From Macrostomum lignano (Eukaryota): DNA of 37,871 nucleotides. Shown here in pieces: positions 12,256 to 37,871 of this stretch; within the stretch, counting starts at the first letter, position 1; every line of letters begins with the position of its first letter. The stretch is taken from the NCBI GenBank assembly GCA_002269645.1, contig NIVC01002231.1, positions 1-37,871 on the forward strand. The letters run 5' to 3'. The notes beneath the pieces were generated by a model. It searched no databases. It saw only the letters and a program-made list of their open reading frames with translations, and was not told the origin of the DNA. The translations under genes were made by a program, and so were the position numbers.

Positions 12256-13183
12256 GAGTGACTTAACGAAATTCTGCGCTTATAATCAAAAAAATTTACA
12301 CCTTCCCGATCAATTTGGGGAAGACTGAAGCATGACGGCATGAACAGATATCCAGGGGCTTCTAGCTGGGCACACGCATACCTTTGGAGATCGAGTCACA
12401 CTGACCAGGTAATTCGTGTTTGAAGAATTCCAATAAGTGCAGTCTCGAATTAAACGCAGTTCTTTGTTCGGGGAAGAAGGCTGGAAGCAGACATTGGGAT
12501 GTGGCTTGGACCCTTGGGAACAAACTAAGGTTGAAATGCCTCATCATTGAATATTGGAAATGAGACAGGCTTCTTCAGACTTCCAGATGGATGTTACGAG
12601 CTAAAATGGATTGCCGCTCTTCAACAAAACAATTTTCGAATTCCTTTTCGAAAAAATCGGACAAAATCATTCCGTGACAAACCGCTATTCCTGGGTCGTA
12701 ACTTTAAAAAGCCTGCATTTTTTCCATTAGAACTGTTTTTTTTAGTTTAAATTGGCAAATTGTAAATCAATTTCCAATGAAACACAGCAGGTGAGAAACA
12801 TAAAATCCGTTAGCTGTGGTATTTTATGCGGTAGTTGACTGGCACCGCGTGTTTATTAATGTTTCCATCATTAAAAGCTTATTAATTAAAAGCTGATAAG
12901 CCGCTTAAAATTGCTTGAAATTGCTTTAAATTAATAAACTGATTGCAGAGCATTGAAAACCGACTAAAAAGTTTAGTGAGAGCTGCTGTCAGCTGATCAT
13001 TATAACAAATTACATGTATAGGGCTAAATGTTCGACTAATCAGAAGATATTCAGCAGATTTAATGGCACGGTGCCCACATGCAGGCAGCTGATCAGCTAC
13101 CGGGCCCGGATTAGCGCTGCTGGTTTCGCATAGGAAGCGAGCAGTCTTTTCTTGTTATTACTATTAGTAGGATTCGTTAGCGA

Positions 13184-16812: not shown

Positions 16813-16813
16813 A

Positions 16814-17073
16814 TGAGGCAGCGCTGGATTCTGCCGCTGTACTTTTGACTAGTGGCTAGCTGATTAACTATTGAAATATTGACTGTACATCCAGTGTACC
16901 CACCACCCCGGCTTCGTGTCCCGTGCGCCCCGCCACCCCAGTGCGTTAATAATTATATATTGAGCATCGTTTGTGTTAGCATCGTTTATGAATAATATAT
17001 CGAAACTGAGATATCGTTTATTTTACCAAATCATCGTGCCACTCAGGTGAACTCTTAGTTAAACGACGCGACA
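16814..17073 (+). repeat. 5' LTR (TG...CA)
   Basis: Direct repeat of 22669-22928 with ~10 differences by eye. Confidence 0.9.
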
Positions 17074-17074
17074 A

Positions 17075-17115
17075 TGTCGTCGCAAGCAGGATCCGAACCT
17101 GCGCGGGGAAACCCA
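17075..17115 (+). other. Primer-binding site, extended complementarity to a tRNA-Ser 3' half
   Basis: TGTCGTCGCAAGCAGGATCCGAACCTGCGCGGGGAAACCCA resembles the reverse complement of the eukaryotic tRNA-Ser acceptor stem, T arm (GGTTCGAATCC-like) and variable arm. Confidence 0.75.
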
Positions 17116-17126
17116 TCAAAAAGCTA

Positions 17127-18581
17127 ACAGACTCGGATGAGGCTCGGGACAAAACTGACCTATTCTTATCTAAGGCCGGCCTTCAGGCAATTCGCACGCT
17201 ATCTCTAATGGCAGCACCAAAAAAACTTGATGAGATGAAATTCGATGACATCAAAAAGCTCGTTGACGAGACGATCCGGCCGAAAAAATCACTTGTAATT
17301 GCCGAACGCACCAGATTCCTCAGCCTGAAGCAGGAATCGGGTGAGACCGTCATAGCCTACTACCGGAGGCTGAGGGCTGCTACGTCACACTGCGAGTTTG
17401 AAAAGCTGGGCAGCAAGCAGACAAAGGAGGACGACATGATTACCATGCGATTAATTGACGGCCTCAACTCCTCAGAGCACAAAAAAAGAAACTTGGAGCG
17501 CCTACAAAACGAAGATGGAGAAACGCCACTCGACAGGATTTTGCAGAATTTGCAGCAGCTTGAGCAGATCCGTGACTACAACACGGGAGCACGAGAAATG
17601 CCCGCAGACGAATTGCCCGCCGAGATTTGCCCGCAGGAGATTTGCCCGTGGAGATTTGCCCGTGGAGATTTGCCCGCCGAGCTTTTCGCGCGGAGATTTG
17701 CCCGCAGTGCATTTTGCCCGTGAGCGAATTGCCCGTGGAGATTTGCCCGCCGAGAATTGCCCGCCGAGGTTTGCCCGCAATGCAATTTTCCCGCGAGTGA
17801 ATTGCCCGCGAGCGAATTGCCCGCCGAGTTTTTTCCCGCCGAGGTTTGCCCGCGATCCTTTTTTGCAGCGCATTTGGCAGCTAGATTCTGTCTATACATT
17901 GCTACCCCCAAAATATGCATTTGATATGCAGTTACTATCAAAACGTTTTGATCGTGTAAATCTCTTTATTGAGATTAACACGTACTAAGCATGGGAAGGC
18001 AATGCAGACAAAATCTGCCGCGTCGCCAAATGCGCTGCTGGAAAAAATCATTGAATCATTGCGGGCAAACCTCGGCGGGAAAAAACTCGGCGGGCAACTC
18101 GCTCGCGGGCAATTCACTCGCGGGCAAATTGCACTGCGGGCAAATCTCGGCGGGCAATTCTCGGCGGGCAAATCTCATGGACCCCTACAACACGCCGGCT
18201 CCTGCTGACATCGCCTTCGCCGGTCAACAGAGGGGAGTCTCCTCACCTGCCAAGCCGCAGCCGTCAATCAAATGCGGGTTCTGTGGTGCCAATCACCCGA
18301 GAGGCAACTGCCCAGCCTACGGCAAAAAATGCTTCAAGTGCCAAAAAAGAAATCACTTTGCGGCTGTCTGCAGATCGCGAGCTGTCCATCAGGAAATCGC
18401 ACTCGATGCAGAAGAAGCAGACGTGTATACTCTCAGTCCCAACAGAGCTAAAGTGGGCCTTTTCAAGACCATCAAAATCAACGGCCAGGGCATCTCAATG
18501 CAAGTCGACACCGGAGCTGAGGTCAGCTTGATTCCGCAGAACCTCTGGCGCCAGCTGGGCCAGCCCACCCTGCGCAAGTGA
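17127..18581 (+). pseudogene. gag: Gag + aspartic protease of the Mag-type element (5'-truncated, interrupted at 17586-18185)
   Basis: FLSLKQESGETVIAYYRRLR (MHR-like), two zinc knuckles, protease VDTGA; excising the insert restores frame (IRDYNT-PAPAD). Confidence 0.85.
17586..18185. mobile_element. Non-autonomous Mutator(MULE)-like foldback element in gag
   Basis: Long imperfect inverted repeats built of GAGATTTGCCCG(C) units with G-starting termini; TSD TACAACACG at 17577-17585 and 18186-18194 (9 bp, possibly 10). Confidence 0.75.
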
Positions 18582-20432
18582 AGGAGAATTCTCTGGCAGT
18601 TCGACGGCTCCAGCATCGCCTGCCTCGGGGAATTCAATGCGTCACTCGAGACCAACTCGAAATTCGTCACGATTGACTTGGTTGTCACCGCCGCGGAGCA
18701 GAAGCATGGAAGAAGCATGCTTGGCATGGACAACATCAAGCTCCAAGAAGACGCGGTCACCATCAACGCGGTCCAGCAGCTCGGGTGCCTCAAAGGGTTC
18801 AAAGCTAAGATTAGACTGGTGGAAGGAGCCAAAGCGTTCTATTGTGCTGCCCGATCTGTGCCGCTACACCTCAGAGACTTGGTGGTGCGCGAGCTGCAGA
18901 GAATGGAATCCGAGGGTATCATTGAGGCGGTCCCTCCCGGAGGCAGCCAGTGGGCATCGCCTATTGTCAACGTGCTCAAACCAAATGGAAAGGTTCGTGT
19001 CTGTGCCGATTTTAAAGCTGGTGTCAATCACCAGATATGCAATGACACCTACCCGATCCCGGAGATGGAGACGATTTTTTCTGAGATAGCAGGCATGTCG
19101 CACTTTGCTAAACTGGATCTCTCTGATGCTTATCTGCAAATCGAGCTCGATGAAGATAGCCGAGAGGTGACGACAATCGCGACACCTTTGGGTCTCTTCC
19201 GCTACAAAAGGCTGGTTCCCGGGCTGAAATCTGCATCGGCCATTTTCCAGAAAGCCTTGGAAACAATCCTACAGGATGTCAGCAACAAGATTGTCTACCA
19301 GGATGACGTCCTCCTGGGAGCGAAATCCAACGCCGAATTAAGGAGCAAAGTGCAGCACGTTCTCCAGACGATGCGAGCTGCTGGAATGGCAACGGAGGTC
19401 AGATTCCTCGGCTACAGCATCAGCGCGAGCGGGATCACCCCGGACCCCAATCTGGTCGGAAAAATTCGCTCCGTGAACTCGCCGAAGGACAGAAAGCAGC
19501 TCTAATCGTTTCTAGGACTTTCCAACTTCTTCGGGAGGTTTATTAAGAACTACTCTGACGTCATAGAACCGCTCAATCAACTCCGGGGCCGAAACGTTGA
19601 GTTCGTCTGGGGCCCAACCCAGGAAGCTGCCTTCACGCGAATCAAGGATCTGCTCTGCAGCGAGCCTGTAATCAAGCCGTATGACAAGCACAAAGAGACC
19701 ACGCTCACTACCGATGCTAGCGAGAAAGCCATCGGAGCGATCCTCTCGCAGGGAAACCACCCGATCATGTACTTCAGCCGGAGACTGAGCAGTGCAGAAG
19801 CACGGTATTCAAACATCGAGAGAGAGGCGCTGGCGATCGTCTGGGCTATGGAGCGTGCGAAACAGTTCCTATTAGGGTCGCGCTTCACACTCAGAACGGA
19901 TCATCGCCCGCTGGAATTCATCTTCGGGTCGAGGCGCCAGTTGCCGAAGGTTGCCAATGCGAGACTTCTCCGATGGGCAATCAAACTGATGGCCTTTGAC
20001 CATGACATAATCTACACTAAAGGCGAATCGATTCCGCAAGTAGATGCACTTTCACGGCTGGATTTCGAAGGTGACAGCAGCAACGAGCTGACAGAGCGGC
20101 CGGAAAGCATCATTCACTGGACTGGCGAGGCTGTGATTCCGTGGCAGGAGCTGAAATCAGAGACCCAAAGGGACCGGTTGCTGGTTGATATTATTAAATG
20201 CGTTGCTATCAACAGATGGTCAAACTGCTCGCCAGCTGAACGACCTTTCAAGGCCATCCGACACGCCCTCACGACCGACGGCGGAGTTCTCTGCTACGGT
20301 GATCGCCCAGTCATCCCGGCTGTCCTCCGACAAAGCGTTCTTGGAATCGTGCACGACACGCATCAGGGATCTGGCTCAACGCTCGCCTACAGAACTCAGC
20401 CTGGTGGCCTGGCTATTGCAACGACGTCGAGG
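18582..20432 (+). pseudogene. pol: Pol (RT, RNase H, start of integrase) of the Mag-type element
   Basis: WASPIVNV, VRVCADFK, KLDLSDAYLQ, YQDD; RNase H TDASEKAIGAIL, YSNIEREALA, TDHRPL; internal TAA and a small deletion before FLGY. Confidence 0.9.
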
Positions 20433-21724
20433 CCCAAGCAACAGGTACGCACGTATTACGCGCATAAAACGCGCATTTTCGTTCGCGTTTTACGCGCGTA
20501 AGCGAACACACAAAATGCGCGCCTTTTGTAACACAGAAAATACGCTGTAATAACGCAATGCTAACTGCAGACTGGTACAGGAACAGGACTAATCATACAT
20601 GTATATATAGGTTCCGCGGATTCGTATATTCATGCAAGCGTACTTAATTGTCATAAGGCTTTAATTACATCGAATAACCCAGAAGGAACGTTAGCTGAGC
20701 CAATCCAAGGCTGAAGTGGCTTTTAGTAAATAAAGTATAGGAAAAATCAATACAAATATTGGTCAGTTTATGTGCATCAAAATGCCAGCCCGTAGGGACG
20801 TTGCCGAAAACGGAGTTCTGATAAATGAACTGCAAATTTTTATTTTTAAAAAATAATTTAAGAACAAATAGATACATAAGAGTGTAATGAAAGAGCAACT
20901 TAAATTAACGAGTAGTGATGAGTAGTGAGTAGTGGTTATTAGCATAAAAGAAAAAACCGCTAAAGCACACGAAAATATACACACAATTCTGACCGAGTTA
21001 AAAAGAAAAAAGTGAAAGTGAAAAGTGAAAGTGAAAAGTAAAATGATTTGGATTAACAATTATTTTCAAACAAAAAGCAACTACATGTAACTCTAGTTAA
21101 ATAAGTGAATATAAATTTAAAAAGGAAACAACAATAAAGCAATCTTTTTTAAAAGCCTTTGAGGCCATTTAAGTTTGAAACATAAAAATCCAATATATAC
21201 ATGTAATATATTTCAAAGTAATAAAAGAAGCCAAATTAATGCATGATAAAATGTATCAAATAGCTATATTTTAATATATCGCTATCTAGCTATAATTAAC
21301 TATGATATAAGTCATATAAAGCAAAGTAATCCATAAAACAAGTGTTGCATGCTCCAGATTACATGCAGTTGGCTTAAGTCCAACTAATGTTAACACGAAA
21401 CACATACTGAGTATGCTATAACTATTGAAAAGAATGGTTCTACTGTAACGATAGGAAACAAAGAATTAAATAAAATACTAACATACTAAATAAAAGCATG
21501 CGAACGCGTTACACATGCGTTGTTCACACGCATGGTGCACGCTGTTAGCTTTACTGGATATTTGAATAATTAACCATTTTTTATTTGCTTTGAGCAAAGT
21601 ATCGCGTCTAAAACGCACTAAATATACTAGCGTATAATAACGCGCGTAATACGCGTGTTTTACGCGCTGTGTATGACATTACGCTCCAAATATGCGCGTA
21701 ATACGCGCGTACCTGTTGCTTGGG
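20433..21724. mobile_element. Non-autonomous TIR DNA transposon, CACTA/EnSpm-like, in integrase
   Basis: TIRs CCCAAGCAACAGGTACGC(A/G)CGTATTACGCGCATA at both ends; 2-bp TSD GG (20431-20432, 21725-21726); excision restores ...NDVE-A-YVRGCSTC. Confidence 0.8.
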
Positions 21725-22668
21725 GGCCTACGTTCGAGGTTGCTCGACCTGCTCAAGACTGCGCCCGAGTGGTCTGGAGAGTGTCCACAGGTGGCCCGAC
21801 GAGGAAAAGCCGTGGCACAGAGTCCACATGGATCATGCGTGCGTGCCGAGGGTCGGACTCCTGCTCATTCTAGTTGACGCTATGTCCGGCTGGCCCGAGG
21901 CCGTACGAGTGCAAAACAGGGACGCGGCGGCAGTCAAGCGGGTGTTGCAGGCGGTCTTTGCTAGGAACGGCGTGCCTCATGTGCTGGTCAGCGACAACGC
22001 CGCCGAGTTCCACGACGCCAATCTGATCGCCTGGCTGGAAAGAATTATCGGCTGCCGCGCCATCAAGACTCCCCCGCGACACCCTGAGTCTAACGGCTTG
22101 GCCGAGCGGATGGTCCAGTCTATCAAGAGAGCATCTGCGGCGTGGGACATGTCCGAAAGCTACGAGTCGTTCCTGTCCAGGGTACTGCTAAACTGCAGGT
22201 GTGTTCCGCATGCTGGGCGCCAGCAGAGCCCGTCGCAGCTCATGGGCCGACAACTACGCAACCCGATAACCATGCGCACACCAATTGGAGCGAGCCTGTG
22301 GTACACGCCTGGAGATCAGCAGCGTCAGGAGCGAGCTGAGTTCGTCGTGCAGAAAGGGACCAACACTGCCCTAATCGCTCGTCAAGGCGGTCGCATCGCC
22401 CTGGCGCATGCGGATCAGCTGAGCCGCGTTGTAGAAGACCAGGTCCAGCCAAACCGATTAGGCCAGAGCCTACCTATCGAACTCGGTCAGGATCCGCCCT
22501 GCGGCCTCGGTGAGGACCCGCCTGGCGAACTCGGTCAGGACCCGCTCGGCGAACTCAGTCGGGACCCGCCCACCGAATCCGAACAAGGCCCAAGTCAAAC
22601 AGCAGCACTTCGCTACCCAGCTCGGTCAACTCGAGGCGTGCCCCCTATCCGTTTCGAAGGGGGGGGGA
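21725..22668 (+). pseudogene. pol: Integrase core of the Mag-type element
   Basis: CSTC, RVHMDHA, VSDNAAEF, NGLAERMV (DDE core). Confidence 0.88.
22656..22668 (+). other. Polypurine tract
   Basis: GAAGGGGGGGGGA directly before the 3' LTR. Confidence 0.85.
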
Positions 22669-22928
22669 TGAGGCAGTGCTGGGTTCTGCCGCTGTACTTA
22701 TGACTAAGTGACTAGCTGATTAACTATTAAAATATTGACTGTACATCCAGTGTACCCACCACCCCGGCTTCGTGTCCCGTGCGCCCCGCCACCCCAGTGC
22801 GTTAATAATTATATATTGAGCATCGTTTTGTGTTAGCATCGTTTATGAATAATATATCGAAACTGAGATATCGTTTATTTTACCAAATCATCGTGCTACT
22901 CAGTTGAACTCTTAGTTAAACGACGCGA
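22669..22928 (+). repeat. 3' LTR
   Basis: Direct repeat of 16814-17073; terminal CA is absent or altered. Confidence 0.9.
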
Positions 22929-23225
22929 TGAAATATTTTAAAATATATGTTATTGTTCTTCTTCTGGTCTCTCACTTCTATGGCTCTTGTTCTACTTCAA
23001 ATATCAATGTGAGAGCCAAATAACTGAGGCGGCGGATTCAACTGACTTTTCCTGATGATGCAAACACTTGATGGTAACTTACAGACCGTTGTATTTGATG
23101 GTCACAATCTCGAGATGTTTTCTCACAAAATATAATGTCTAAGGTGGAATTCCAAATAAGAAGCTCGTTCGATTTAAGTCACAAGGTGTTTCTAGTTGTT
23201 CGGGTGAACCGAAGGTTCAGTCTAT

Positions 23226-23530
23226 TGTGAAACGTGGATTGGGTGTTGGTTTGGCTTTAGTAAGTCGACTTATAAGTTTTGGTGTTTGGGTTGAGACCCT
23301 AACTGTGTCAATCAAAATAGTCAAACGAGGTAAGCTAGGAGAATGGCGAAGGAGAGGCAAGGGCGTGGAGAGGCGGAGCGAGCAGAAAAAAGGGGCGAGC
23401 TTCTTGCTTGGTTAACATGAGCTTTTATAGTACTTTTCAGTCTTGATCGCATTGGATGGTACATAACTGCTTTTCATTGGTTGAGGTTGGGGTCGTGTCC
23501 TCAGCTTTTGCTATTTGGAGCGCATTCATT
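23226..23530 (-). promoter_or_regulatory. Possible 3' LTR (U3-R-U5 end) of the large env-bearing element
   Basis: Minus strand: three CCAAT boxes, then TATAAAAG (~23422-23429), a pyrimidine-rich stretch, ending ...TTTCACA at 23226. No matching second LTR found in the window. Confidence 0.35.
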
Positions 23531-24810
23531 GGTTAAAATACATTCAATCTGGATGGGAGCTTTCTAGAGCCAAAATGTATCACTTCATTCGCTCTATTTT
23601 TCGGGGAAGCGAGGCCCTCCGAGCGCATAAAAACAGAAAAAGAATAGTAGGGGGTTAAAATTGATAAAATTGCAGAAAAAGATAACGCATTGTAGTGAAC
23701 GAGAAAAGTTGTCGCAGAAAAAATAGTTCGCAGTGAATAATGTTAGCAAAAATGTTTGAGTAAAAGGGAACCAATTTAAGCAAGGTAACATAGGTTAAAG
23801 TACAACATCAGTTTAAATAGCGAAAGAAGGGATAGCGCAGAGGGCCTTTAGTTAGGCTAAGCTAAACTAGCTAAGCAAGGATGGAATAAAACGCAGCGAG
23901 GGTAACCAAAAAATCGATAAAATGGGTGTACAGAGCAAAATGGAGGTTTAGCGACGCAAGCTTAAAGTGAAAACGCGGTGAGTTAAAAGGAGGGTAATAA
24001 AAATCATTGTACAGCGAAAGTTGGGGGGGGGGGGTTAGCGAGGAACCGCTCAGCTAATAAATCATGTACAAAGTAGAGGTTAAAATTTTAACTGGGGAAA
24101 CGAAAAAGATAAAAATTCTAGGAAAAATTGTACAGTCCAAAGGGGGTATATAACACAAGGCTTTAAAATGGAGCAAGGCGAGTTAAGCGATTTTTGACTG
24201 ACGGTTAATAATCAAGTAAATTCGATTCATCATGAGCACAAGGAAGAACTTGCGGTTTTTGCTAGGCGACTTAGCAAAGCGGTCCCAAGATGATTGGGAC
24301 CTTGGCGACAGGCGGTGGGCGATCACGCTCGTCCTTCTCGCTGTGCTGGGAGTGCTGGTGCTGCTGCTGCTGCTGTGCCAATGTTGCCGTTGCTGTCGTT
24401 GTTGTCGGCGCAACTGCTGCAGGTCGGGCGCGCCTGGAGCGTCGACTGCGGTAGCAGATGTGGAGGCGCCGCCAGCGGAGTCGGTGGTGTAAGAGCCGAG
24501 CTGCTTTGCTGGTTCGTCCGGCCTTCTGAACGCAACAACGGCCCTTTTCAGGGCCACCACTTGATGTGATGCCGAAGTTGTCAGATAAGCAGACTGTGCA
24601 GTCATGAAGGAACAAACGTTGTTGAGCCGTATGCTTTAGTGCTAGTTGGTTGACTTAGGTGAAAGCAGCGCCAGGGACAGAGCGATTTGCAGAGACCAGG
24701 CATAGTGTAGGGCGATGGCTGCGTAGATCAAGGTTGTGGCTTGAATCCGGTTGAAGCAGCGCCAGAGACAGCAATTGGCAGTGACCAGGCACAGAGCAGC
24801 AGTCGTGTAG

Positions 24811-24866
24811 GTCAGGGTTGGGCAGGGTTGAGCAGGGTTGAGCAGGGTTGAGCAGGGTTGAGCAGG
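24811..24866. repeat. 10-bp tandem repeat AGCAGGGTTG x5-6
   Basis: Directly visible. Confidence 0.9.
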
Positions 24867-25051
24867 CTAGCGCGTGATGACTTTTGAAAAAGCAGTTGAC
24901 AGAATAACAGAGAAAAATAGCGTAAGCTTTACACAAGTGAGCGCAAAAGAGCGGAGGAGTAATAGGCAGAAGAACGGAAAATATTTTTTTTTTTAGTATT
25001 TTTGAACAATTTTTGTAGTGTTTCAGCGCTCAATATTGAAGAAAAAGCGGA

Positions 25052-26140
25052 TTAAAATAGTGAGCGATGATGGTGAATCAAGTCATAAAAAAGAGCGTAT
25101 GCCAGTCGAGCAAAATTAATATTAGGATCAGAAGGCGGAGAATGTTGAATACGCTTGATGGAGAAGGTATGAAGAGTGGCGTACTCTGGCAAGGTGTTAG
25201 GATAGCCAACAAGAGCATTTCGTATACGGTGAATATCGTATAAATATCGACGAAGGGGAGGACAAGAGAAAGGAAAAATAGTATGGGCAACTACCGAGCG
25301 AGAATAAAAATCGATAATTATAAAAGCAAAGCTTCTTGAACGCGTTGAGAGAATGAAAACAGCGTGGGTAAAGAAAAAATTGTGCGGATACAAACGATTG
25401 AGCGTGCGTATCATAGCTTTCTTAGTAGCACGAGGAGAAAATGGAGGAAAAATTTGATAAACATAAGGGGCGAGAGAATCGAAGGAGGTTAAATAATTTT
25501 GGAGCGTAGAAGTTAACTGTTGCGCCGAAAGATTAGCAGCATCATGGCGGAATTGTTGCCATGGGTAGCGTAGAGAGGAAAGCAACAGAGGCCAAGTGTC
25601 TTGGTTAAAGCGCATGCATGGTTGAGGGAGAGTAGAAGCAGAGAGTTGAAAGAAATCGTCGATAGACATATTAGGAGAAAAAAGAAAATGTAGGATTGGT
25701 ACGAAGCTGCGGTTGAGAACGTCAGTCATAGTGGGAGAAAAGTTCTGTATACGTGGTCGTGAGTGAGTACGACGCAGCACACCAAATAGACTAATTCGCA
25801 GAACGCGGAGCATCTTAGGATAAAAGCGATGGCAGCGGATAACATAAAAACGAGAGAAGAAAGCGGAGGCCATGCGTAGCCGTTGGGGTTCACCAATAGT
25901 TTCAGAATAAAATATTGCTTCAGTGAACCAAGCAACAACGGTTGCGAGGCAAATAAGATCATGATTTAACTGTGGTCGAATATCCATCGGTTGCGGAAAT
26001 GGATCCATAAGAGAAAGGAAAAAGGAGAAAAGCAATAGATACACAAAATATTGTTTTAGCGTGTGAGCTCTGCAATGTAAAGAGGGAAAAGAGAAAATTT
26101 TTTGTAGCTTTTGTTGATAAAACGGAAAATAAAAGTTCAT
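25052..26140 (-). CDS. Orphan 362-aa ORF downstream of integrase, probably an accessory gene of the element
   Basis: Long stop-free non-repetitive ORF, same strand as pol, 170 nt after the IN stop, behind a strong splice-acceptor-like signal; F/aromatic-rich; no known motif. Confidence 0.55.
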   Translation of the reverse strand: MNFYFPFYQQKLQKIFSFPSLHCRAHTLKQYFVYLLLFSFFLSLMDPFPQPMDIRPQLNHDLICLATVVAWFTEAIFYSETIGEPQRLRMASAFFSRFYVIRCHRFYPKMLRVLRISLFGVLRRTHSRPRIQNFSPTMTDVLNRSFVPILHFLFSPNMSIDDFFQLSASTLPQPCMRFNQDTWPLLLSSLRYPWQQFRHDAANLSAQQLTSTLQNYLTSFDSLAPYVYQIFPPFSPRATKKAMIRTLNRLYPHNFFFTHAVFILSTRSRSFAFIIIDFYSRSVVAHTIFPFSCPPLRRYLYDIHRIRNALVGYPNTLPEYATLHTFSIKRIQHSPPSDPNINFARLAYALFYDLIHHHRSLF

Positions 26141-26310
26141 TGTGTCAGTTCGTCAATACTCGTAGTCACGTAAAGAGTCGCAATGCAGGGAGAGAGAGCA
26201 AAAGCTAGAAAAGAAGGAAAGAAAAAAGGAAGAGAAAGAAAGGAAGAGAAAGCAATATTGTCAGTCAAGGAAAAGAAAGAAGAAAAGAAATTTAGAAGAT
26301 TTTTTATCAT

Positions 26311-27520
26311 TCACGACTTCTTGTTCTTCGATCTTAGGTTGTAGCCGTGCGTCTGTGGCTGACCTGGTGGCTCATCAGTGGACGTGGTTTGCAGCGCGAT
26401 GGACTTGCTCAATGGCGGCCGATGGTTGTGGTGGACCTGAATGTCATCAGTTGTGAACTCAGGTAGGTGACTAGGTCCAGCGCTGAGTCCATCTCCAGGC
26501 CATGGTTTGAGCTTGGAGGCATGTACCACGATTGGTCGTTCGCTTGGCCGGTTGACATCGGAAATCAGTGCGTTCTGATCGGAGAGCCATGCTAGTAGAC
26601 GCATTGGGCCACGATAAGGATTGGAGAATTTTGTCTCCTTTGTTGCTGAGACATCCAAGTAGCATCGTGCACCTGGGCGTATGTAGCGGCGGTTGATCTT
26701 CTTGTCAGAGTTTTCAGCGCGCTGTTCAGCTGAGTTGTGCAGAAGTTCCTTGGCGACTTCTCTGGCAAGCAAAATAGCTGAACAGGTCAAATTGACTGGT
26801 TTAATAACGTCCATGTATGCAGTTGTCTGGTGTTCCATGATCCGTGCGTTGGGTGGCAGAAAGTCTCGAGCGAAGAACAGTAGAATGGTGATTCGTTCAT
26901 CGTTGAGTGAGCGGCGGTATTGATTGCTAGTGTCACCGCGGGTAGGAAGTCAATCCAGAGATCTGGTTTGTCATGGACAAAGGCCGTAAGAGTTTGCTTC
27001 AGTGTCTTGTGTGCGCGTTCGACGAAGTTGCTAGATGGTTGGTACACCGAGGTGTAGATCAGGTGTATTCCAAGGGCACCCATAAACTCTCGAAATTCTT
27101 GCGAGATGAATTGGGGTCCATTGTCTGAGATGATGTGTGCTGGTAGTCCTGCGAAAGCGAACACACGGTTGAAGAGGTTGTTGCAGATAGTTGCAGAAGT
27201 TGTCTCAGTTAGCGGGATAGTGAACAGGAATTTGCTAACGCCGCATTGGGCCGTGAGTATGTACTTGTAGACGTCGCGGCCGTGGAAGCTGGTGGCAGTG
27301 GTCCTACAAGGTCGATAGCCAAATGAGAAAAAACCTCGTTGAATTTGACGGCTTTGTGCAGCGGTCGCAGTCGAGGTGCTGTTTTCGCTTTGTGGCAGAC
27401 TTCGCAGTTGTTAACGAAATTGAAGACGTCTTGCCGTAGTGTAGGCCAGTAATAGAAGTGATTGATTTTGTCAGCTGTCTTTTGGTGACCTAGATGACCA
27501 CCAAGGGCTGTCGAGTGGTT
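26311..27520 (-). CDS. pol: Integrase (HHCC + DDE + GPY/F), frameshifted in this sequence
   Basis: H..LGGHLG, YYWP, CEVC, IDLVGP, SDNGPQF, NFVERAH, PYRGP. Confidence 0.9.
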
Positions 27521-29330
27521 ACTGTCAAAAGAGCTTCACGGTAGCGTGTTGGTATCACGAGGCGGCTTCGTCCTTCGTCATCTTCAAAGTATAGAGTGTT
27601 TCCGTCCAGGAAATAACGTGCCAGGTGTCGGCGAACATATTGTTGGTCTTTCTTGGACAGCTCGTGAGTGGGTGATTTTTCCGATAGAAGTGCTTTGATT
27701 GTTGACAGTAATGGGTCTTGATCAATGGCATCCTGCAGTCCGTTGAATGTTGACAGCGATTGTATCTGACAGACTTTGGGGATGCGTGAAAGGCAGTCCG
27801 CTACTACGTTTGATTTGCCTTTCACATAGTTGAGAGTGAAGTTGTAATCTTGTAGCGCTAGAATCCACTTCTGAAGTCGTTTTGAGATAGGTTGCTTGTC
27901 ACTGAATAGACTCTTGAGTGGCTGGTGATCAGTGAAGACGTGGAATTGTTGGTAAGAGGCGTAGAGGAACACGTGTAGCTTCTTTATTGCCCAATAGATG
28001 GCGTATGCTTCGCGTTCAATCGGTGGATAGCGTTGTTCGGTTGGACTTAACGTCTTAGAAATGTAGGCAACCGGGCGTTGGTGGTTGCTGTCGTCTAGCT
28101 GTGAGAGTACTGCTCCAATGGCGGTATCCGAAGCATCAGTGTGCAGAAAGTACGGTTTTCGCGGATTTGGATGAACCAGTAGTATATCCGTAGAGAGAAG
28201 TTGTTTCAGCTTTTCAAAGGCTGCTTGGGCGGCGTTTGTCCAGACGAATTTGTTAGGCTTCGAAGTATTTTTGATGATACTCAGAAGTGGTTGTACTACT
28301 CGTGAGTAGCCAGCAATGTGCGTTCGGTAGAAATTTGCAAGTCCAAGGAAAGATTGTAGTTGTTTAACCGTTTGAGGCACAGGGAAGGTCTTGATTTTCT
28401 CGATGAGGCTGGGTGCGGGTCTAATGCCTTGAGCAGAAACCACAAATCCAAGATATTGTACCTCTGTTTTGGCAAAGATGCATTTTCGTAGTGAAATTCG
28501 CAATCCATGATGTCGTAACTTTTGGAAGAAGCGTTCGATTTCTTTGAGCATGCCGGTGAAGTCTTCGGCGATGAGCATGACGTCATCCAAGTAGGCAATC
28601 TGATTTGGAGAGTCAGCTGTTAACAATGCTACAAGACGGCACATTAAGCTAGGACTGGACTTGAGTCCTTGAGGTAGTCGATTGAATTCCCAAAGTAGGC
28701 CGTTGGGTGCAATGAACGCAGTGTATTTTGTGCTTTCTGGATCGATCCGAACTTGGTAGAAAGCATCTGCTAGGTCACAGAGTGTGTACAGTTTAGCGTT
28801 TTTCAATCGATGTAGCAAATCCGGAATCTTAGGAGGTCGGATGCTAGGAGCACGAATTAGCTTGTTCAGTTTTCGGTAATCCGTCACGAGTCTTAGTTGT
28901 CGGCGACCTTGAGCGTCGAGCGTCTTCTTTTCCACGAGAAGACATGGACTTGAGTATTCCGATTCACTCGGACTGATGATTCCTTTTTGACGGAAGTTTT
29001 CGATGAGCTCATCAAACCGTTCTTGTAGTCCATGAGCGATTGGATAGGGTCTGGACGTGACTGGCTCAGAGTGTGGGTGTAGATGCAGGTGAGCCGTGTA
29101 TTGGGTAGAGCAACCCATGTCGGTTGGCAGTAGTGCCAAGACGTCACGGTACTTGTTCATTAGAGTAACTAATTGTTCACTCTGCTCGGTTGAGAGGTGC
29201 TGGTTGGCTTGTTTGAGTTGAGTACGGATCATGTCAGTCGTAGGTGCTTCTTGTTGCAGCGTGCGGAGACTGTTGATTTGAGCTGCTGGGCGCACGATGT
29301 TGTAGTCAGACATGTTAGCCAGATTCCAAT
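27490..29330 (-). CDS. pol: Reverse transcriptase + RNase H (Gypsy type)
   Basis: YSSPCLLVEK, LRLVTDYRKLN, DLADAFYQ, LPQGLKSSP, YLDD (28582-28593), FLGL; RNase H LHTDASDTAIGAVL, YPPIEREAYA, FTDHQPL. Confidence 0.95.
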
Positions 29331-29960
29331 GACTTGTTGAGGATGCAAGGTTTGCGTTGTCAGCGACGGGTTGGCAATTTCCACAGTGATAGTTTGTCCG
29401 TCCGGGTTGACAGAAACAAGGCAAGTTGGTATCATCAACTGGTGTTTCTGGATCGTGTGGTCCTTAGGGACGAACAGGACAGGAATCGTTGGCTCATGTC
29501 GAGAAGAGAGTTTCAGCGTGACTTGGTGCGTTGTCTGTGGTGGTAACTCTAGCTTGTTTTGCATCACCGCAGAGGTTTCTTGCAACTGTTGGATGGAGTT
29601 GAGCATCGCAAATTGCTCATTGCCAAGCTTAGCTGTCGCTTTCGAGTAGTCGAATTGTAGTGGTATTCCCAGTGACTTAAAGGTTTCTACTCCTAAGAGC
29701 AAATCATAGTCAGCGTCGGGGGTGTCGAGCACAAAGGCCGATATCTTGTGGTTGCGTCCATCGATTTCGAGATCAAAAGTGGCCTTTTTGTTGAGGTTTA
29801 GTTGTTGTCCTCCTGCACAAATGGCGTTCATATTGGTGTCTTGTAGTGGTACTCGAAGCTTTTGGCGAATGCCGGTGAGATGCAGGAGATCGAGGCGCCG
29901 CTGTCAATGAGGGCGGTGCATCTGTGTCGAGTATGCGGTGCGTTGCGGCACCACAGGTTG
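29330..29960 (-). CDS. pol: Retroviral-type aspartic protease + spacer (frameshifted near 29860)
   Basis: ALIDSGAS (DSG 29897-29905) and DLLLG motif. Confidence 0.88.
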
Positions 29961-30229
29961 ATCATAGTTGCTGTTGTTAGATGCTTCAAAACAAAGGCGT
30001 ATGAGTAGTTTGCTGGCCATTTTGGAACTTTAGGTTCTGGCGGTGGTCTCCGTGGTGGCGGAAGGGTGGCACGAAGTTCAATCGTTTCGATGGGTGCCGA
30101 GGTGTTGGCGCTTGTCTCGGTGGTATCAGTTGCTGTTGTTGGGAGTAGTCGTTTCGTGATTCCACTCGAGTTGGAGTTCGTTGTTGCCGCAGCACTTGTA
30201 TAGTGTGCGTTCTGCCGTAACGGATGGTG

Positions 30230-33207
30230 CTGGCGACGCAGAGTCGGCCAAGATTGCACACGAAGATAATAACGGCAATGTAGACGATTACAGCTGCTGT
30301 TAAGACGAACTTTTCTTGATAGTTTGCGACTAGTCGATCCCAGTTGAATATCGACGAAGACCATAGATTGAAGAGAGCGAGTTTTGAGTCCAGGAATGCA
30401 CTGTCAGCATGTGCTGTTCTGTGTCGTGTTCGATTCGGAAGTTTGAAAACTGTAATCAGAAAATCGCGAGTTTGCATGAACTGGTGCATTAGGTCGGTCA
30501 CCGTTATCGGACTACGAAGTGAAGTATAATTGATATCTCCCATAGGTTTGAAGATGCTTTCGGAGACTGAAGTTTGCAAATCGGACAACCGATAGTTTTC
30601 ATCGGATCTGACATTAGCGTTGTGGGTTCAAACTCGAAAAATTTAGTGTGGTCTTGAATAGCATCGATTGTTTAGGCAGGTAGTAGTACGGGAAGGCGTC
30701 GCATGAGATTAGAGCTGGAGTAGCTGTGGAGACAATACGAGTCGTTGTGTCCAAAAATCCAAGAACAGTATAATTTTGTAGACGGAATTCCAGTGGGGGA
30801 CGCGTGAAGCATTGGTTCGTCTTATACTTTGGTTGGACAAAGCGAAATTGATGTAGAGGTTTGCACTGGTAGACGAAGAGATATCCAGCAATGGATCTAG
30901 CTCGCAAGAAAGGATCATTTAATAAGAGTCGACCAGCGAGCGTTGGTTGTGTGTAGTATAACTGTCGGTTGTACTTGAGATTAGTTGCGTACATCATGCA
31001 TTGAGTAGTTGCAAGCTGCCTCTGTACTTGGAGAAGGTCTTTTCGAGCTTTACTAGCAGCTCCTTGTAGTTGTCCAGCAAGAAGTTCAGCGGATGCGAAC
31101 GTTGATGAAAGTTGCGCAGTAGAGTTGCCTGAAGGGGCTGCGATGGTTTTGTCGTCTGTGCTTCGCTTGTTGCGTGGTAGTAGTAGGAGATCCGGTTGAC
31201 TGCCTTGGGGTTCGTGATGTGGAACTGCTAGATTCGTGTGAATAGAAGCCAGTTGTGGATTGGTTGTTGTCGCTGGTGAGTTCGTGGTGAAGGTTGAGGT
31301 TGCAGACTTTGCTGGTGCACTGGTTGTGCTGCTAGAGGTTGAGGTTGTTGGCGGTAAAGTGGTGGTGGTACGAGGTTGTGTCGTCACTTTTGTTGTCGTC
31401 GTAGTTGGACCTGCTGTTGTTGTTGCTGCTGAGGTTGTAGCAGTTGTGGTTGTTGAAGTTGTCGGTGTTACGGTTGTGGTAGGTATTGTTGTCGTTGTAG
31501 TCGGTGGCATTGTCGTCGTAGCTGGTGGTGTTGTCATTGTAGTCGGTGGTGTTGTCGTTGTAGTCGGTGGTGTTGTCGTTGTAGTCGGTGGTGTTGTCGT
31601 TGTCAAAATTGTAGTTGTTGGTGTTGATTTTGTAGTAGTTAGTATCGTAGTTGTTGGCGTCATTGTTGTAGAAGTGCTTGACGTCGGTGGATGATCAGGT
31701 CGCTCTTGTCGTAAAGGTTGCGGCGGTAGGAATTGTCGTGACTGAGTTGTCGTAGTGAAAGGATGTTGAGTCGTCGATTGCTGAACGGGTAATATTGTTG
31801 GTGGCGTTGGTAGTATCGCTGGTGGTGAACGACGTTTTTGTCTCGAAGAAGTGGTTTCTTCGCTAGTTTGAGGTTTTGGAGTAGCTTCTTCTAATGGGCT
31901 TCGTAAGGTGGCGAGAAATTCTGCTTCTTTGTTGTCGAGGATGTCTACGTATAGACCTTGCGTTGAAAGGTACAACGTCTTACGGACGCCAGTGCAGGTG
32001 AGAGTGTGAGTCGACGGCACTGGGTTGAAGGTTAGTCCCAATGTTTGATCATTAGTTAAGAACAAGCCGGAGTTTAAGTTGCCTTCAAGAGTACGAAATG
32101 GAAATGGTTTTTGTCTCGAAGAAGTGGTTTCTTCGCTAGTTTGAGGTTTTGGAGTAGCTTCTTCTAATGGGCTTCGTAAGGTGGCGAGAAATTCTGCTTC
32201 TTTGTTGTCGAGGATGTCTACGTATAGACCTTGCGTTGAAAGGTACAACGTCTTACGGACGCCAGTGCAGGTGAGAGTGTGAGTCGACGGCACTGGGTTG
32301 AAGGTTAGTCCCAATGTTTGATCATTAGTTAAGAACAAGCCGGAGTTTAAGTTGCCTTCAAGAGTACGAAATGGTTTTAAAGGACAATCAGCGAGTGGTG
32401 GAGGTGTCCAAATAAGATTTAGATGTCTTGGTCCTTTCACGTCAATTTGGTAGATTGCTTCAGTTTCCAAAGGATCCCAGGGGATGTTAGTATCGGCAAA
32501 GGTAGGTTGAAAGCTCGCATTTCTTGTGCAGTTGTTTTAATTGTACAAAATTTGTCGGCGAGTTTGCAGTTGTCCATTGGGAAGGACAAAGATTCCATTT
32601 TTTGATCTGCTGTTGAGTAGGCTGGGATTCCGGTGATCACTGTTGTTACTATTTGTTCTGAATGTGAACCAGGAGTGCAACGCACGGCATTTTGCGTGTT
32701 GAATGTCGATTGCAGGCGTTGGATAGACTGAGTTGACGCAGTCTTTAACACTAATGATCCATCAGGCGATAGCTTTGTTCGTGCCCAGTTTTCACAATCA
32801 GCTTGAGTGACTGGTTGCGGTTCCAACTCTACCAGGGCGGATGTCCAGGTTCTTATCACCGCCTTATCACATCTAATAGTGATTTTCTCACGGAAACAGA
32901 CAGTCATAACCAGGGAACTGGTTTCTACGTTCGTTGTGTAAAGTTCCAGTTTCAACGGGAGTGTCGGCGTTGTTTGGTGTTTGAGCTGTTCGCAACGGAT
33001 CTCATGTGGTATCGTGAAAATTCTTGGGATCTGGTTGTACGGACAGACCATTGGTGTGTCAATGAAGCCCTCGTGAGATTGTCTCTCAATCGATGGTGGG
33101 GTTGACGTCGTTACCGGCGTAGCGTTGGCTAGTGCGAAGAGTGAAGTTGCTAGGCACAGGAGAAAAAGTGTCAGTAGTGATCGGCGAATTCCGACGGAAG
33201 CTTTCAC
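30230..33207 (-). CDS. env: Envelope glycoprotein, herpesvirus gB-like / class III fusogen (three frame breaks)
   Basis: Signal peptide RRSLLTLFLLCLATSLFALANA; Cys-rich N-half; furin sites RQKR and RNKR; gB domain III/IV-like LQ-x21-C, QP, RAR, YQC, CFTRP, GFL, SC motifs; TM FVLTAAVIVYIAVIIFVC (30256-30309). Confidence 0.82.
31835..32374. repeat. 273-bp (91-codon) in-frame tandem duplication inside env
   Basis: Copies offset by 273 nt (31840/32113, 32038/32311), apparently identical. Confidence 0.92.
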
Positions 33208-33253
33208 GGTTTTCTCGCGGTTGTTGTTGCTGGTCGGTGGAGTGTAGTGTCAG

Positions 33254-35025
33254 TCATTCTTTCAACCGTACAAAGGCGAATAGAGTTGATAGTCGCAGCG
33301 GCAGTAGTCGGTTTTTGAGTAAAGATTTCAGCTGCTTAGCGTCTCCAGAGTAGCGAATTTCGTTTCCAAAAGTCGGTGGGCGTTCATCAACTGTAGCAAT
33401 GTGCATCAGTTGGGCAGACTCGGGAGCGTCGTGAGTCGTCCATCCAATCTGCGGCTGTTGATTCCATCCTGGGTGGGACGTTTCAGGGTCCTGAGCAGTG
33501 ATGGCGCGTATCGTGGATATTGTTGTTGCGCAAATCTCGGAGGTTGTCGTTGATTGTTGGTGCCGTTGTATCGAGGCGGATAGCGTTGCTGAGGCCGGTT
33601 TCCATAGTCTTGACGGGGTGGAAATCGTGATTGTTGTGTCGCCGGTGGACCGTAGCCTTGTGTACGTTGGGCTCGTAGTCGGCACTGGTTAATAGAGTGT
33701 CCTGGTTTTCGGCAATAGTTACAGGTCAATCGTGGCGGTCCCTGCTGGTAACGATTTCGCGGGGCATCAGAGCCGTATTGGGCTGTGTTCCTTCGATCAC
33801 TTGAGTTAGGTCGGAAGGACGAGGTTGTTGGTCATTCCTTCGACGACAGTCGGCGGCATAGTGTCCAGGTCGACCGCAATGATAACAAGTGGGCTTCTGT
33901 TGCATATTAGCGATAGGTGGCTTGGTTTGTGTTTGCAGGGAGGCAACCACCTGCTGATTGGCTTCCTTCGTCGTTTTTTCTAAGGTAGTTAGACGCTCTG
34001 TGAGAGCTTTCAAGTCAGTGCCATCAGAGTCCATGGTGGAGTCGCGGATTTGTTCGGCGCGGATGGCCTTGTTGATTAGCGTACTTTCCGTGGTGATATT
34101 TTGCTTCAAGAGTTCTCGTTTGATGTAGGGTAGAGCATTGTTGATAGTCGTAGCCATCAGGGTAGCAAGGAAGTCTCGGTTGCGCTGGTCGATGACAGCT
34201 TGGTTCGCGGTGGTGTTTCCGGACCGGCACCTTCCGGAAATTCTTCCGGTATTTCCGGCATAGCTGACGCTGAGCTTTCGACGAATATCGGTGAAATAAG
34301 ACAGGAACGGTTCGCCGTACTGTTGTTTCCGGGTTGTTGCATTATGCAGCGTTAGAGCCGAGCCAATGGTTACTTCCCGAAGGCGTTGAGACAGTGCCTC
34401 AATGGTGGCTGGATAAGAGGCTTGGACTGCGGCAGAGAGGCGACTGTATTCGAGTTTAAGAAGGTCATTCAGTAGTCGCGGAAGAGCCGAATCTTTGCGT
34501 TCTCCGATAGTCCAAAGGAGCGTGTGATCAAGTCGAACTCTTCAGTGAAGGAGCGGAAGTCATGCATTTGGTCGATTCCTTTCAGGGATTGACGAATTTC
34601 AGCAAGAGCAGTAGCTGAGACGGGATGGTTTGATTGCAATTGCAGACTGCGGTTCATAACGTCAGTAAGTTCACGGACAGCATTTGTCGCTGCAGCATCA
34701 ACATGGGGAGCGCCGTCCTGATCAGCCATATCTAGAGTAGATTCTTCAGCAATATCGTTTGGGGCTGGTTGAACTGTTTCGTCCGCGTCTGTTAGGATGG
34801 AGCTGGGTGCTGGTGAGTGTGCACGGTTGTGTTCAAAATGATCCGCGAGAGGGTTATTAAACTCAACGTTATTTGGTATAAACAGGTTAGGTACTGGTGA
34901 ACTATTCGTGGGAGCTGTTCACCTATTTGGCAGTCAGAAGTTTCTAAATTTTGTTCAGGGGGTCTGTTAATATTTGAGCTTTGAAAAACTGGTCCGGAAC
35001 GTAAATCTCGGACAGGTGTGGTCAT
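33254..35025 (-). CDS. gag: Gag (frameshifted in this sequence)
   Basis: Start MTTPVRDLRSG; MHR-like RKQQYGEPFLSYF; CCHC knuckles CYHCGRPGHYAADC and CNYCRKPGHSINQC. Confidence 0.85.
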
Positions 35026-35480: not shown

Positions 35481-36295
35481 CTGAGAACTCGTTCTGGCTT
35501 TTGAATTTCGAATCTGAATTTTTTTTGAGCTATCTGACGAGTTTCAGCTAGGGGGGTTGATTTCATAATTTTAAGCAAACGTAGAGAAATGTTTTTGTAG
35601 TTTTAAATTTGCTATTTTTAATTTTTTGAAAATTTTATAATTTTTATTGATCGGACTGATCATTTTGTAACTTTAACATGATAAGAGCAGTACGGGTTGT
35701 ACGAAATGAACTATAAGCAATGGTATTGTTTTTTGTGTTTTCAAGTTTTATTATTTTTTTGCGATCTAATGATCATTTTGAGTTTGTCGCAGGCTACGAA
35801 AATACTATGTGAATAGTCTAGCATAGATGAAGCGAAGAAGAGTAAATGGAGACGTGCGTTTTTTGAGGTTTTAAATTTTTTATATTTTTTGTCGATCAAA
35901 TGATCATTTTCAAAGTAGTGTTTACACCATGCAGTTTAAAGTAACAGAAGGTGAGCTGGAAATGAGACTACGATCAAAAGACAATGAGAGAGTATAGTAT
36001 ATTTACAGGGCCCAAGGGGGCTGATGCTGAGGCGATAGAAATTGCGGCTTATGGGGGGGGAATCACTCAGGGCGACCACCGTATGCGGAGGCGAGAAGTT
36101 TGGGGCAAGGAGAGTCGCTAACGTCAAAACAGGGGTCGTCGGTAAAGTCGGGGTGGCCAACTATATGTTCCCGGTGGAACCGAGGGAGGGTGAGGAAATG
36201 AGCTTCAATGGCCTGACCTCTAGAACTGCCGCGATGGCGCGTCCAGGTCGACCAGAAGTGGTAGCGGAGTTGGTAAGAGGCAAGGTGGAACAGGC

Positions 36296-36850
36296 TTAAG
36301 GGTGAGTCGGAAACGGGGGAACAAAGCTCTGGAGCAATAGTTCGTGGCGTTCACACTCCTCGTCATCAATTTTGCGACAGTATATTCGGCGGAGATCTTT
36401 GTAGCGAAGAGGAACGCCGGTATGAAAATCAACGCAACGCAGAGCGCGGAAGAGTAGCTCGAAGTCCTGGCCTCGGAGGGCTATATCGACGATTGCGGAC
36501 TTAAAAGCTCCTTGCAGGGGCGGCAGATGGAGGCCTTCGAGATGGAATAGCATATTGTCTATCTGCCCCGGGATGTGGCATTGGAGGCAGTCATAAATGT
36601 GGGTCAGGTAGGAATCAGTAATGGTGAGGACAAACTTGGTTACGGACCAGGGCGTCCATTACAACTGAAGAGATCGTGAAACAGGGAATCCGGGATTGCG
36701 GGCTACGGAGAGGAAAGGGCGAGAGATAGGAGGGGTGATAGTAAATGAAACTGCGGCGATGTTGGCAATAATACGTCTGACACTGGCAATCAAATAGACG
36801 GGGGCAGTAAGGGATGCGGCTTCAGCGTAGATACGTGCGAAAGTAGTCAT
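36296..36850 (-). pseudogene. Orphan ~184-codon ORF upstream of gag, broken by one in-frame TAA (36659-36661)
   Basis: ORFs 36659-36850 and 36296-36553 share a frame, and the intervening sequence has no further stop. Confidence 0.35.
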
Positions 36851-37871
36851 GTTGAAATTATAATAAGTGAATTAAAGTACTTTAATTTAATTTACAGTGT
36901 TACCAAGTTGCTGGAACGGTAGAGACTGGATGTGAAGAGTGTCGTTCTTGCAGTTGGCTTCGGTAGTACTGGAGAGGAGATTAACTCAAGAGTGCAGGAT
37001 TCTGTCAATCTATAGTGCTGCAAAAGTGCTAGTATAATAGTGCTGTTGATGGCGAATTCTGAAGGGAGTTGGGAACGGAGTTTGCGGCGTCCTCATTGGT
37101 TGGTTAGGGGGATTCCAAGCCATGCCTGGGAGACGGGCGGTTATATTGGTGAAACTGAAGGGGACGGGTAAGGCTTGCTACTCCTTCGCGACTCCGCTAC
37201 TTCAAACACTCCCGGACGACGATTGCTCGACTATATTATTAGGCTATGCAAGCTCAACTCGAAAGGACGAGGAAGACGGCAGATCAATGGTGGTGGCTCT
37301 GTCGGCGGTTGTGGGAGCTCGAATTGCTGCTGGAGGACGGCTGGCCCCGCGACACGAAGCGGGTGCTCGGCGGGGTTCGCGACTCCTGTCAGCGTTCAGG
37401 CGGCTAGTCACACCCGTCCGTAAGTGGTGTGAGCGCCGCCTCGAATGGTGGCAGGAGCTCCAGCATGTGGAAGAAGAGATTGTCGCAGGACGCCGTTGGG
37501 TAATTTTATCTTAGTTTAATGTAATTGAAGGGGCTAACCGACTGAAGGTAGGGGTAATCTTGAATTTAATTTTTTGTAATTTTGTATAGTTTTTGTAGAT
37601 ATGCTAACACAATTGAATTGCTTATTAGTGTACATATATTTATATTGTTATTGTTGCGATTACCCTTTTGTACGTGTGAATGTTTTTGTAAAAAAATACA
37701 TAACTAACCTGTTTAACTATTTGAATTGATAAAGGCTGCTCAGGTTAGAGGGGGGGCTATGGTAGGGCTCAATCTTGACAAAGCAAAGGATGGATAGCGT
37801 AAAAAGTAGTTTTCGTAAAAACGGGAACAAGATGGTTAACAAAATAAGTAGGGCAAAAGCTGTATGGGGCA

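Follow-up and report, generated by a model that had tools for sequence, protein, structure and literature searches.

The window, the whole 37,871-nt stretch of Macrostomum lignano contig NIVC01002231.1 (GCA_002269645.1) analysed here, holds most of a young, recently copied, multi-copy Ty3/gypsy LTR retrotransposon that carries a herpesvirus gB-like Env between Gag and Pol. The element lies on the minus strand, spans 14.8–17.3 kb (about 15–17 kb) across its copies and has a 5′ leader of 2.5–4.7 kb. Its features in the window, in the order in which the element is read, are as follows.

37243–37514, plus strand: antisense accessory ORF, about 93 aa with 9 Trp, broken in the window
36044–36850, minus strand: 5′ accessory ORF of about 269 aa, rich in Cys and His; its frame is broken in the window and only long-form copies carry it
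33679–35025, minus strand: Gag, with its start codon at 35025, a capsid-like region, and CCHC knuckles at 33843–33890 and 33679–33726
33190–33678, minus strand: low-complexity linker between Gag and Env (Ka/Ks 0.3–0.4)
33124–33189, minus strand: internal signal sequence with basic residues, a hydrophobic core and an Ala-x-Ala end, predicted to be cleaved
31844–33123, minus strand: N-terminal half of Env, beta-rich, resembling gB domains I–II, with conserved cysteines
31834–32374, minus strand: perfect 273-nt (91-codon) tandem duplication in env
31163–31843, minus strand: mucin-like spacer, about 240 aa and 50% Ser+Thr in copy L033, disordered in the structural model
30313–31162, minus strand: C-terminal half of Env, resembling gB domains III–V, with a long central helix and five N-glycan sequons
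30259–30312, minus strand: transmembrane (TM) helix with a Kyte-Doolittle value of 2.7; Cys and Arg residues lie just after it
30001–30258, minus strand: proline-rich cytoplasmic Env tail of about 105 aa, within which the window's frame breaks
29601–30000, minus strand: aspartic protease (Pfam), broken in the window, catalytic motif in 20/20 copies
29201–29600, minus strand: conserved domain between protease and reverse transcriptase (RT), with matches in sister families
27561–29200, minus strand: Ty3-like RT and RNase H
26311–27560, minus strand: integrase (H2C2 zinc domain and rve core) with the long frame's stop codon, broken in the window; the end interval is open in 16/16 copies
25052–26140, minus strand: 3′ accessory ORF, 362 aa from its first ATG
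23588–23600, minus strand: purine-rich tract, probably the polypurine tract, which precedes all listed 3′ LTRs
22929–23587, minus strand: 3′ LTR, 659 bp; the 5′ LTR lies beyond the right end of the window and contig

The LTRs are 659 bp long with TGA...TCA ends, and LTR pairs are 100, 100, 99.85 and 98.6% identical. Four-bp target duplications flank 4/4 stand-alone copies that have both ends. An identical tRNA-Glu primer site follows all nine of the 5′-type LTRs listed; this site matches 34 genomic sites, and the three that were checked are all tRNA-Glu. A Pfam search gives the Pol order protease, RT, RNase H, integrase. RT matches Ty3 with an E value of 1e-71, compared with 6e-38 for foamy virus, 1e-36 for MLV-type and 6e-12 for HIV sequences, no BEL/Pao or copia RT being among the matches available for comparison. 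By these similarities RT is nearer to Ty3 than to retroviruses, and the Pol order, LTRs, target duplications, primer site and purine tract are those of Ty3/gypsy elements (Metaviridae). In a tree made here, the 13 env-bearing rows group together in a single starred clade, which does not include the 7 env-less rows.

A preliminary description of this DNA proposed that two CCHC knuckles, a hydrophobic signal, an ectodomain, a TM segment, protease, RT, RNase H and integrase follow one another on the minus strand, and Pfam and hydrophobicity searches recover that order. It further proposed that these parts form a single frame, restored by editing 15 sites. The single frame holds, on the evidence of natural copies and sister families rather than of the edited frame. 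The window's own copy is broken, with frame changes in 13/31 landmark intervals. Our comparison set comprised 20 other copies of the family, all with env at the same place, and at 16 places, compared with the 15 edited sites, at least 14 of the 20 differ from the window by 1–2 nt. Of 217 binned 1–2 nt events, 167 occur in a single copy only. For all 31 intervals the open state is the commonest among copies or ties for commonest, the weakest cases being 8/17 and 9/20. The frame is open from the Gag start into the ectodomain in 11/20 other copies, from the second CCHC knuckle into the ectodomain, across the Gag-Env junction, in 15/20, and from the TM helix into the protease in 12/20. Copy L033 has a natural 2,069-aa frame that runs from Gag into RT. 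Because every one of the 20 copies in this assembly carries breaks (2–17 each), the full-length frame is seen piecewise in this family and whole in sister families only, where 7/14 stretches hold unbroken Gag-Env-Pol frames of 2,859, 2,859, 2,458, 2,503, 2,535, 2,538 and 2,538 aa. A public protein of 2,852 aa carries the same domain order, and fusions of Env to protease or of Gag to Env occur in public proteins from other sources. At the places within 26300–31150 where the window's frame breaks, short-read contigs from four runs, each of a different study, have a length other than the window's, and one contig of 1,638 nt runs from env past the protease. The window's frame breaks thus look like assembly errors.

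The proposed length of 2,909 aa fared less well than the long frame itself, since it includes the in-frame 273-nt duplication, which is absent from 19/20 other copies and shared only with copy L021. The other 16 measurable copies, leaving aside L021, span about 2,800–2,850 codons. The peptides predicted for the two junctions are not those that natural copies encode: all 12 copies that are open from TM helix to protease keep the TM frame for at least 36 codons past 30254, and the natural frame of L033 reads differently at the Gag-Env junction.

Several lines of comparison identify Env as a gB-type (class III) fusogen. A Pfam search with the window's own pieces found no env family, and gB was reached only with a profile built from relatives, which themselves match PF24664. 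Searched against PDB sequences, this profile gave 49 matches, all 49 to herpesvirus gB (best E 4e-15). The top Foldseek matches of the Env model are likewise all gB (best E 9e-15), with a whole-chain TM-score of only about 0.3, a pTM of 0.46 and a disordered mucin spacer. Sequence identity to gB and to Monjiviricetes fusion proteins is 8–10%. Ka/Ks values of 0.05–0.10 for env, similar to those for Gag and the protease, indicate purifying selection. Two strong hydrophobic segments, one on each side of the ectodomain, are found in 6/6 family representatives, and furin-type sites at both ends of the spacer (31829–31843 and 31163–31174) are both kept in 20/20 copies. A PSAP motif lies in the Env tail of 18/20 copies and is likely a budding signal. 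Across families, 7/8 tails contain P[TS]AP, PPxY or LYPxL, with a chance of 0.03–0.15 each in shuffled tails, and 3/6 public-protein tails contain a late-domain motif, two of these three being already within the 7/8; these counts are not independent, because the families are related and the sets of tails overlap.

In the window's family, three conserved ORFs appear to accompany the Gag-Env-Pol frame as accessory genes. The 3′ ORF stays open for at least 325 codons in 9/11 other loci (Ka/Ks 0.1–0.7). It has no Pfam match at E 5, no Atlas match and no homologue among 873 candidates of 174–557 aa, and its single-sequence model (pLDDT 42) is unusable; a SUMO-protease-like identity found no support. 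Compared with L057, the antisense ORF shows 18 synonymous and 5 non-synonymous changes, and all sense frames beneath it are closed. Small ORFs at 24183–25029 and the first ORF of the leader have mixed Ka/Ks values and were not accepted as genes.

We consider it probable that this young Ty3/gypsy element, with its gB-type Env in one frame between Gag and Pol, is translated into a single polypeptide, threaded through the membrane of the endoplasmic reticulum and then cut. The hydrophobic pattern fits a membrane-threaded polyprotein. In this model, Gag would remain cytosolic while the internal signal inserts with its basic N-terminal side inside. Signal peptidase could cleave after the Ala-x-Ala end and leave Gag anchored by the signal stub. 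The capsids of flaviviruses and HCV are likewise anchored by a signal stub. The ectodomain would fold as a gB-like trimer and furin would cut at both ends of the mucin spacer. The TM helix would halt transfer, so that the tail, protease, RT, RNase H and integrase return to the cytosol and Pol at first stays attached to the Env tail, at the spot where three chains come together. This proximity would favour protease dimerization at the budding site, where the PSAP motif in the tail could recruit ESCRT. The protease would then release the enzymes; a Trp-Pro bond conserved immediately ahead of the protease may be the cut site.

It is possible, but we think improbable, that splicing or internal starts also yield Gag alone or Env-less Gag-Pol from the single frame, in which case the parts would depart from 1:1:1 and the threaded chain would be one product of several. 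Retroelements usually require more Gag than Pol, and the long leader would suit such a scheme, as would the accessory ORFs on the far sides of gag and integrase, for which separate messages would be required. Against it, single shift-free Gag-Pol frames are common in LTR elements, and no joints appear in the short-read contigs over 26300–31150, a stretch that stops short of Gag and for which contigs show presence only. An unlikely alternative is that Env serves some purpose other than infection between cells, for example siting assembly on an internal membrane, and that the element moves only within its own cell. The accessible part of one survey of such elements (PMC13524379) yielded no particle or infection data, but the gB fold, conserved cysteines, invariant furin sites and Ka/Ks near 0.1 fit a working fusogen. 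Still less likely is an uncleaved internal signal, which would leave Env as a two-pass protein joined to Gag, with later release by the element's protease at the linker. Some gB-type ectodomains do have TM domains on both sides, according to the same survey, but the segment here is short and its Ala-x-Ala end is a signal-peptidase pattern. Finally, a nested or mis-assembled env, or a fusion created by the earlier frame edits, might be suspected from the window's broken intervals and perfect duplication, but is ruled out to near certainty by env in the same place in the 20 other copies, by the domain order common to sister families and public proteins, and by the 1,638-nt contig.

A bolder and tentative reading is a 'complex' invertebrate retrovirus-like element with a rebuilt, flavivirus-style assembly. 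In such an element Gag would be held on the membrane by its signal stub, the budding signal would have moved from Gag to the Pol-carrying Env tail, a mucin excised by furin would shield the fusogen, and the host would be tuned by three family-specific accessory genes, one of them antisense. The family is young and multi-copy in what is probably a laboratory flatworm, which puts its natural tissue within reach of direct study; concrete predictions come from the late-domain motifs in Env tails across several diverged families and from the selection acting on accessory genes.

The layout was at first thought to be undescribed. The interpretation that env shares the frame of gag and pol, lies between them and is not nested stands, but gB-type elements in GAG-ENV-POL order and in-frame env genes have already been published. 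Citing Sacco et al (2022), Chary and Hayashi (eLife 2026, PMC13524379) describe Ty3/gypsy elements of Nematoda, Bryozoa and Platyhelminthes that have the order GAG-ENV-POL and an env of the gB type. The window's family resembles the 'ancient errantiviruses' described there in its Ty3/gypsy Pol, LTRs, tRNA primer and near-identical copies, as well as in the order of its genes and the HSV/gB-type ectodomain between signal and TM helix. By eye, rather than by computation, the N-terminal half of Env has its cysteines and motifs arranged as in the bryozoan C2b rows of that study's Supplementary file 2. In-frame, polyprotein, accessory and splicing terms are absent from the main text. The family is distinct from the catalogued Platyhelminthes_Rhabditophora_Mlig_errantivirus_2, whose LTRs measure 863 bp, whose span is 10.6 kb and whose primer site is a different one, compared with 659 bp, 14.8–17.3 kb and tRNA-Glu here; this span also exceeds the study's 14-kb LTR cut-off. 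The nematode endogenous retroviruses have env before pol (Sacco et al, 2022, J Gen Virol, doi 10.1099/jgv.0.001739, as cited in PMC13524379). Their hosts are nematodes, and the likeness is one of description only. They are reportedly built around a continuous gag-env-pro-pol ORF.

Env shares its profile and fold with herpesvirus gB and Monjiviricetes fusion proteins. It differs from them in having a long spacer, rich in Thr and flanked by two furin sites, and in being embedded in a retroelement polyprotein. The retroviral combination of an env 3′ of pol encoding a class I fusogen and a retroviral RT is absent here. Burro/GYPSM1 from Schmidtea mediterranea is about 30 kb long and encodes a 4,873-aa polyprotein with env in frame between gag and protease and, at the place corresponding to the conserved domain between protease and RT, a dUTPase-like domain (Arkhipova and Yushenova, 2019, PMC6431247). 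Like Burro, the present family is a flatworm gypsy element with an in-frame env between gag and protease, one polyprotein and accessory ORFs, but the BIR, BCL2, ankyrin and MATH domains of the Burro polyprotein have no Pfam match in the window. Our literature search found no report of Env-tail budding motifs or selected accessory genes in such elements. The gene order is thus already known, and the window's family adds to it a furin-flanked mucin spacer that is predicted to be excised, an Env tail with a PSAP motif, and three conserved accessory ORFs.

In the window, the Gag-Env-Pol element lies beside a second retrotransposon and several further features:

26311-35025, minus strand: a pair of CCHC knuckles followed by an env-like region and then by protease, reverse transcriptase (RT), RNase H (RH) and integrase (Pfam)
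22929-23587: 659-bp long terminal repeat (LTR) of the same element
16813-22928, plus strand: second LTR retrotransposon, without env, with LTRs of ~260 bp and protease-RT-RH-integrase ORFs
17595-18176 and 20424-21733: two inverted-repeat insertions within this neighbouring retrotransposon
14085-15229, minus strand: exons resembling a gelsolin-family gene by eye
4123-7597, minus strand: ankyrin-repeat ORF, then an ORF resembling a Mab-21/nucleotidyltransferase domain by eye
546-14070: several arrays of tandem repeats, 21-40 nt per unit

The LTR was delimited at 22929-23587 because the sequence common to the copies ends sharply at 22929 and other copies carry the segment again at their 5′ end. 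LTR pairs are 100, 100, 99.85, and 98.6% identical, a 4-bp target duplication flanks all four stand-alone copies having both ends, and the primer site matches tRNA-Glu. Whole copies occur in a short form of 14.8 kb and a long form of 16.9-17.3 kb, in which the leader is ~2 kb longer. Among solved structures, Ty3 is nearest to the RT-RNase H (E 1e-71), followed by foamy virus (6e-38) and HIV (6e-12). The Macrostomum lignano assembly holds 21 full-length matches of the Env-protease junction at 95-100%, the window counted in, and the other 20 form the comparison set used here. Not all of the 21 matches are separate insertions: of 11 3′ flanks examined, ten were distinct. Copy L021 has the window's 4-bp duplication and 273-nt duplication and a flank that continues the neighbouring LTR, and therefore seems to be the window's insertion represented a second time, on a different contig. 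The element is real, young, and well supported.

The element was inserted 2 bp before the end of the neighbour's right LTR; at locus L060, the neighbour's missing LTR end and the matching 5-bp flank stand ahead of the 5′ LTR. Locus L049 (G000:C172) holds a tandem pair of copies with one LTR in common, where a primer site and the internal region of the second copy come after the 3′ LTR of the first. At L045/L046 and L052/L053, two copies are 99.9% alike in the compared stretches yet their target duplications differ, a sign of very recent transposition.

The single reading frame was scored on natural copies, with no edited frame used. In the window it is interrupted in 13 of the 31 landmark intervals, and none of the 20 other copies is unbroken from end to end, with 2-17 breaks each. 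The stretch from the second knuckle to the ectodomain is open in 15/20 copies, from the Gag start to the ectodomain in 11/20, from the transmembrane segment (TM) to the protease in 12/20, and from the C-terminal half of env to the protease in 6/19. Both junctions are open in L021, and copy L033 has a frame of 2,069 aa running from the Gag start into RT. These breaks resemble errors: of 217 binned small indel events, 167 occur in one copy alone, and at 16 places the window departs from 14 or more copies. Where the window's frame breaks between 26300 and 31150, contigs from four runs in four studies differ from it in length; a single contig of 1,638 nt reaches from env to past the protease.

The single-frame design is settled, at the level of sequence, by sister families, where seven of 14 fetched stretches have unbroken frames of 2,458-2,859 aa, all ordered Gag, signal, Env, TM, protease, RT, integrase. 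With the open junctions in natural copies, these frames bear out the preliminary description in placing Gag, Env, and Pol in one frame. Its two junction peptides did not survive: at Env-protease, each of the 12 copies with an open TM-to-protease stretch continues in the TM frame for 36 codons or more beyond 30254, and at Gag-Env the natural frame of L033 reads otherwise. The proposed 2,909 aa includes a 91-codon duplication seen in only 1/20 other copies; the frame spans ~2,800-2,850 codons in the 16 others with a measurable span.

Public protein P0002 (2,852 aa, labelled Macrostomum lignano) has the same order as the sister-family frames, the metagenomic P0003 combines Env with Pol, and of the 29 protein matches scanned several fuse Gag to Env or Env to protease. 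P0004, a gene model labelled Macrostomum lignano, is 90-96% identical over the aligned parts. Loci L089-L102 show that this genome contains four or more other Gag-Env-Pol families, one with dozens of copies, with RT-RH 33-75% identical; in a small tree all env-bearing rows fall in one starred clade. For P0008 and P0089, which are Gag-Env and Env-Pol halves, the source is in each case a 9,072-base contig with the label of a bacterial genome bin, and the two are probably one misbinned animal element; P0056 bears a similar label. In P0027, P0074, and P0039, Env-like relatives are joined to NADAR, nucleotidyltransferase, or helicase domains.

When 21 natural env sequences were combined into a profile, it matched 49 PDB sequences, all 49 of them herpesvirus gB (best E 4e-15). 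The predicted Env structure (mean pLDDT 64) has two confident halves with a disordered spacer between them, and Foldseek matches it to gB at E 9e-15 with a whole-chain TM-score of ~0.3. Two furin-type sites, both kept in 20/20 copies, bound the ~240-aa spacer, half of whose residues are Ser or Thr. Ka/Ks is 0.05-0.10 in the folded env halves, 0.05 in the protease, 0.11-0.18 in Gag, and 0.3-0.5 in the spacer and linker.

Strong hydrophobic segments stand on both sides of the ectodomain in 6/6 family representatives, four of which have a weak third segment in Pol. Since basic residues precede the first segment and Ala-x-Ala ends it, its sequence fits an internal cleavable signal that would leave Gag inside. 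After the second segment come Cys and Arg and then a ~105-aa tail that continues into the protease. By established rules for membrane proteins, this arrangement would put Gag and Pol in the cytosol and Env in the lumen. PSAP is present in the Env tail of 18/20 copies, and P[TS]AP, PPxY, or LYPxL in 7/8 tails, with shuffle chances of 0.03-0.15 each, the families being kin; only 3/6 public proteins with a readable tail carry such a late-domain motif, two of them already among the eight tails. A Trp-Pro pair occurs shortly ahead of the protease in 7/8 tails. Retroviral proteases cut at aromatic-Pro sites, and by analogy this pair is a candidate self-cleavage site.

Three ORFs outside the long frame have silent change in excess of amino-acid change, in a test that assumes 24% silent sites:

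362-aa ORF, after integrase: open for at least 325 codons in 9/11 other loci; silent:replacement 23:32 against copy L058, p 0.003
~269-aa Cys/His-rich ORF, in the long leader: p 2e-8 against copy L057, in an alignment possibly with shifted codons
93-aa Trp-rich antisense ORF: silent:replacement 18:5, p 6e-8; sense frames beneath all closed

None of the three has a Pfam match. The 362-aa ORF has no match in the protein collection or Atlas, and the other two were searched beyond Pfam in their own genome only.

The interest of the element rests on the inferred processing and budding model and on these accessory genes. In the literature searched, nothing relevant was found on such elements with regard to late domains, processing by signal peptidase, or envelopes in Macrostomum; this silence is weak evidence of absence, because paywalled articles, figures, and bioRxiv supplementary files were out of reach. 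The layout itself, for which the preliminary description knew of no described element, is already in print. PMC13524379, which cites Sacco et al. 2022, reports that nematodes, bryozoans, and flatworms carry GAG-ENV-POL elements of the gB type and catalogues nine flatworm elements, and PMC6431247 describes Burro, with env in frame between gag and pol. The Macrostomum element catalogued in PMC13524379 differs from the family in the window, which is a new family with a known layout.
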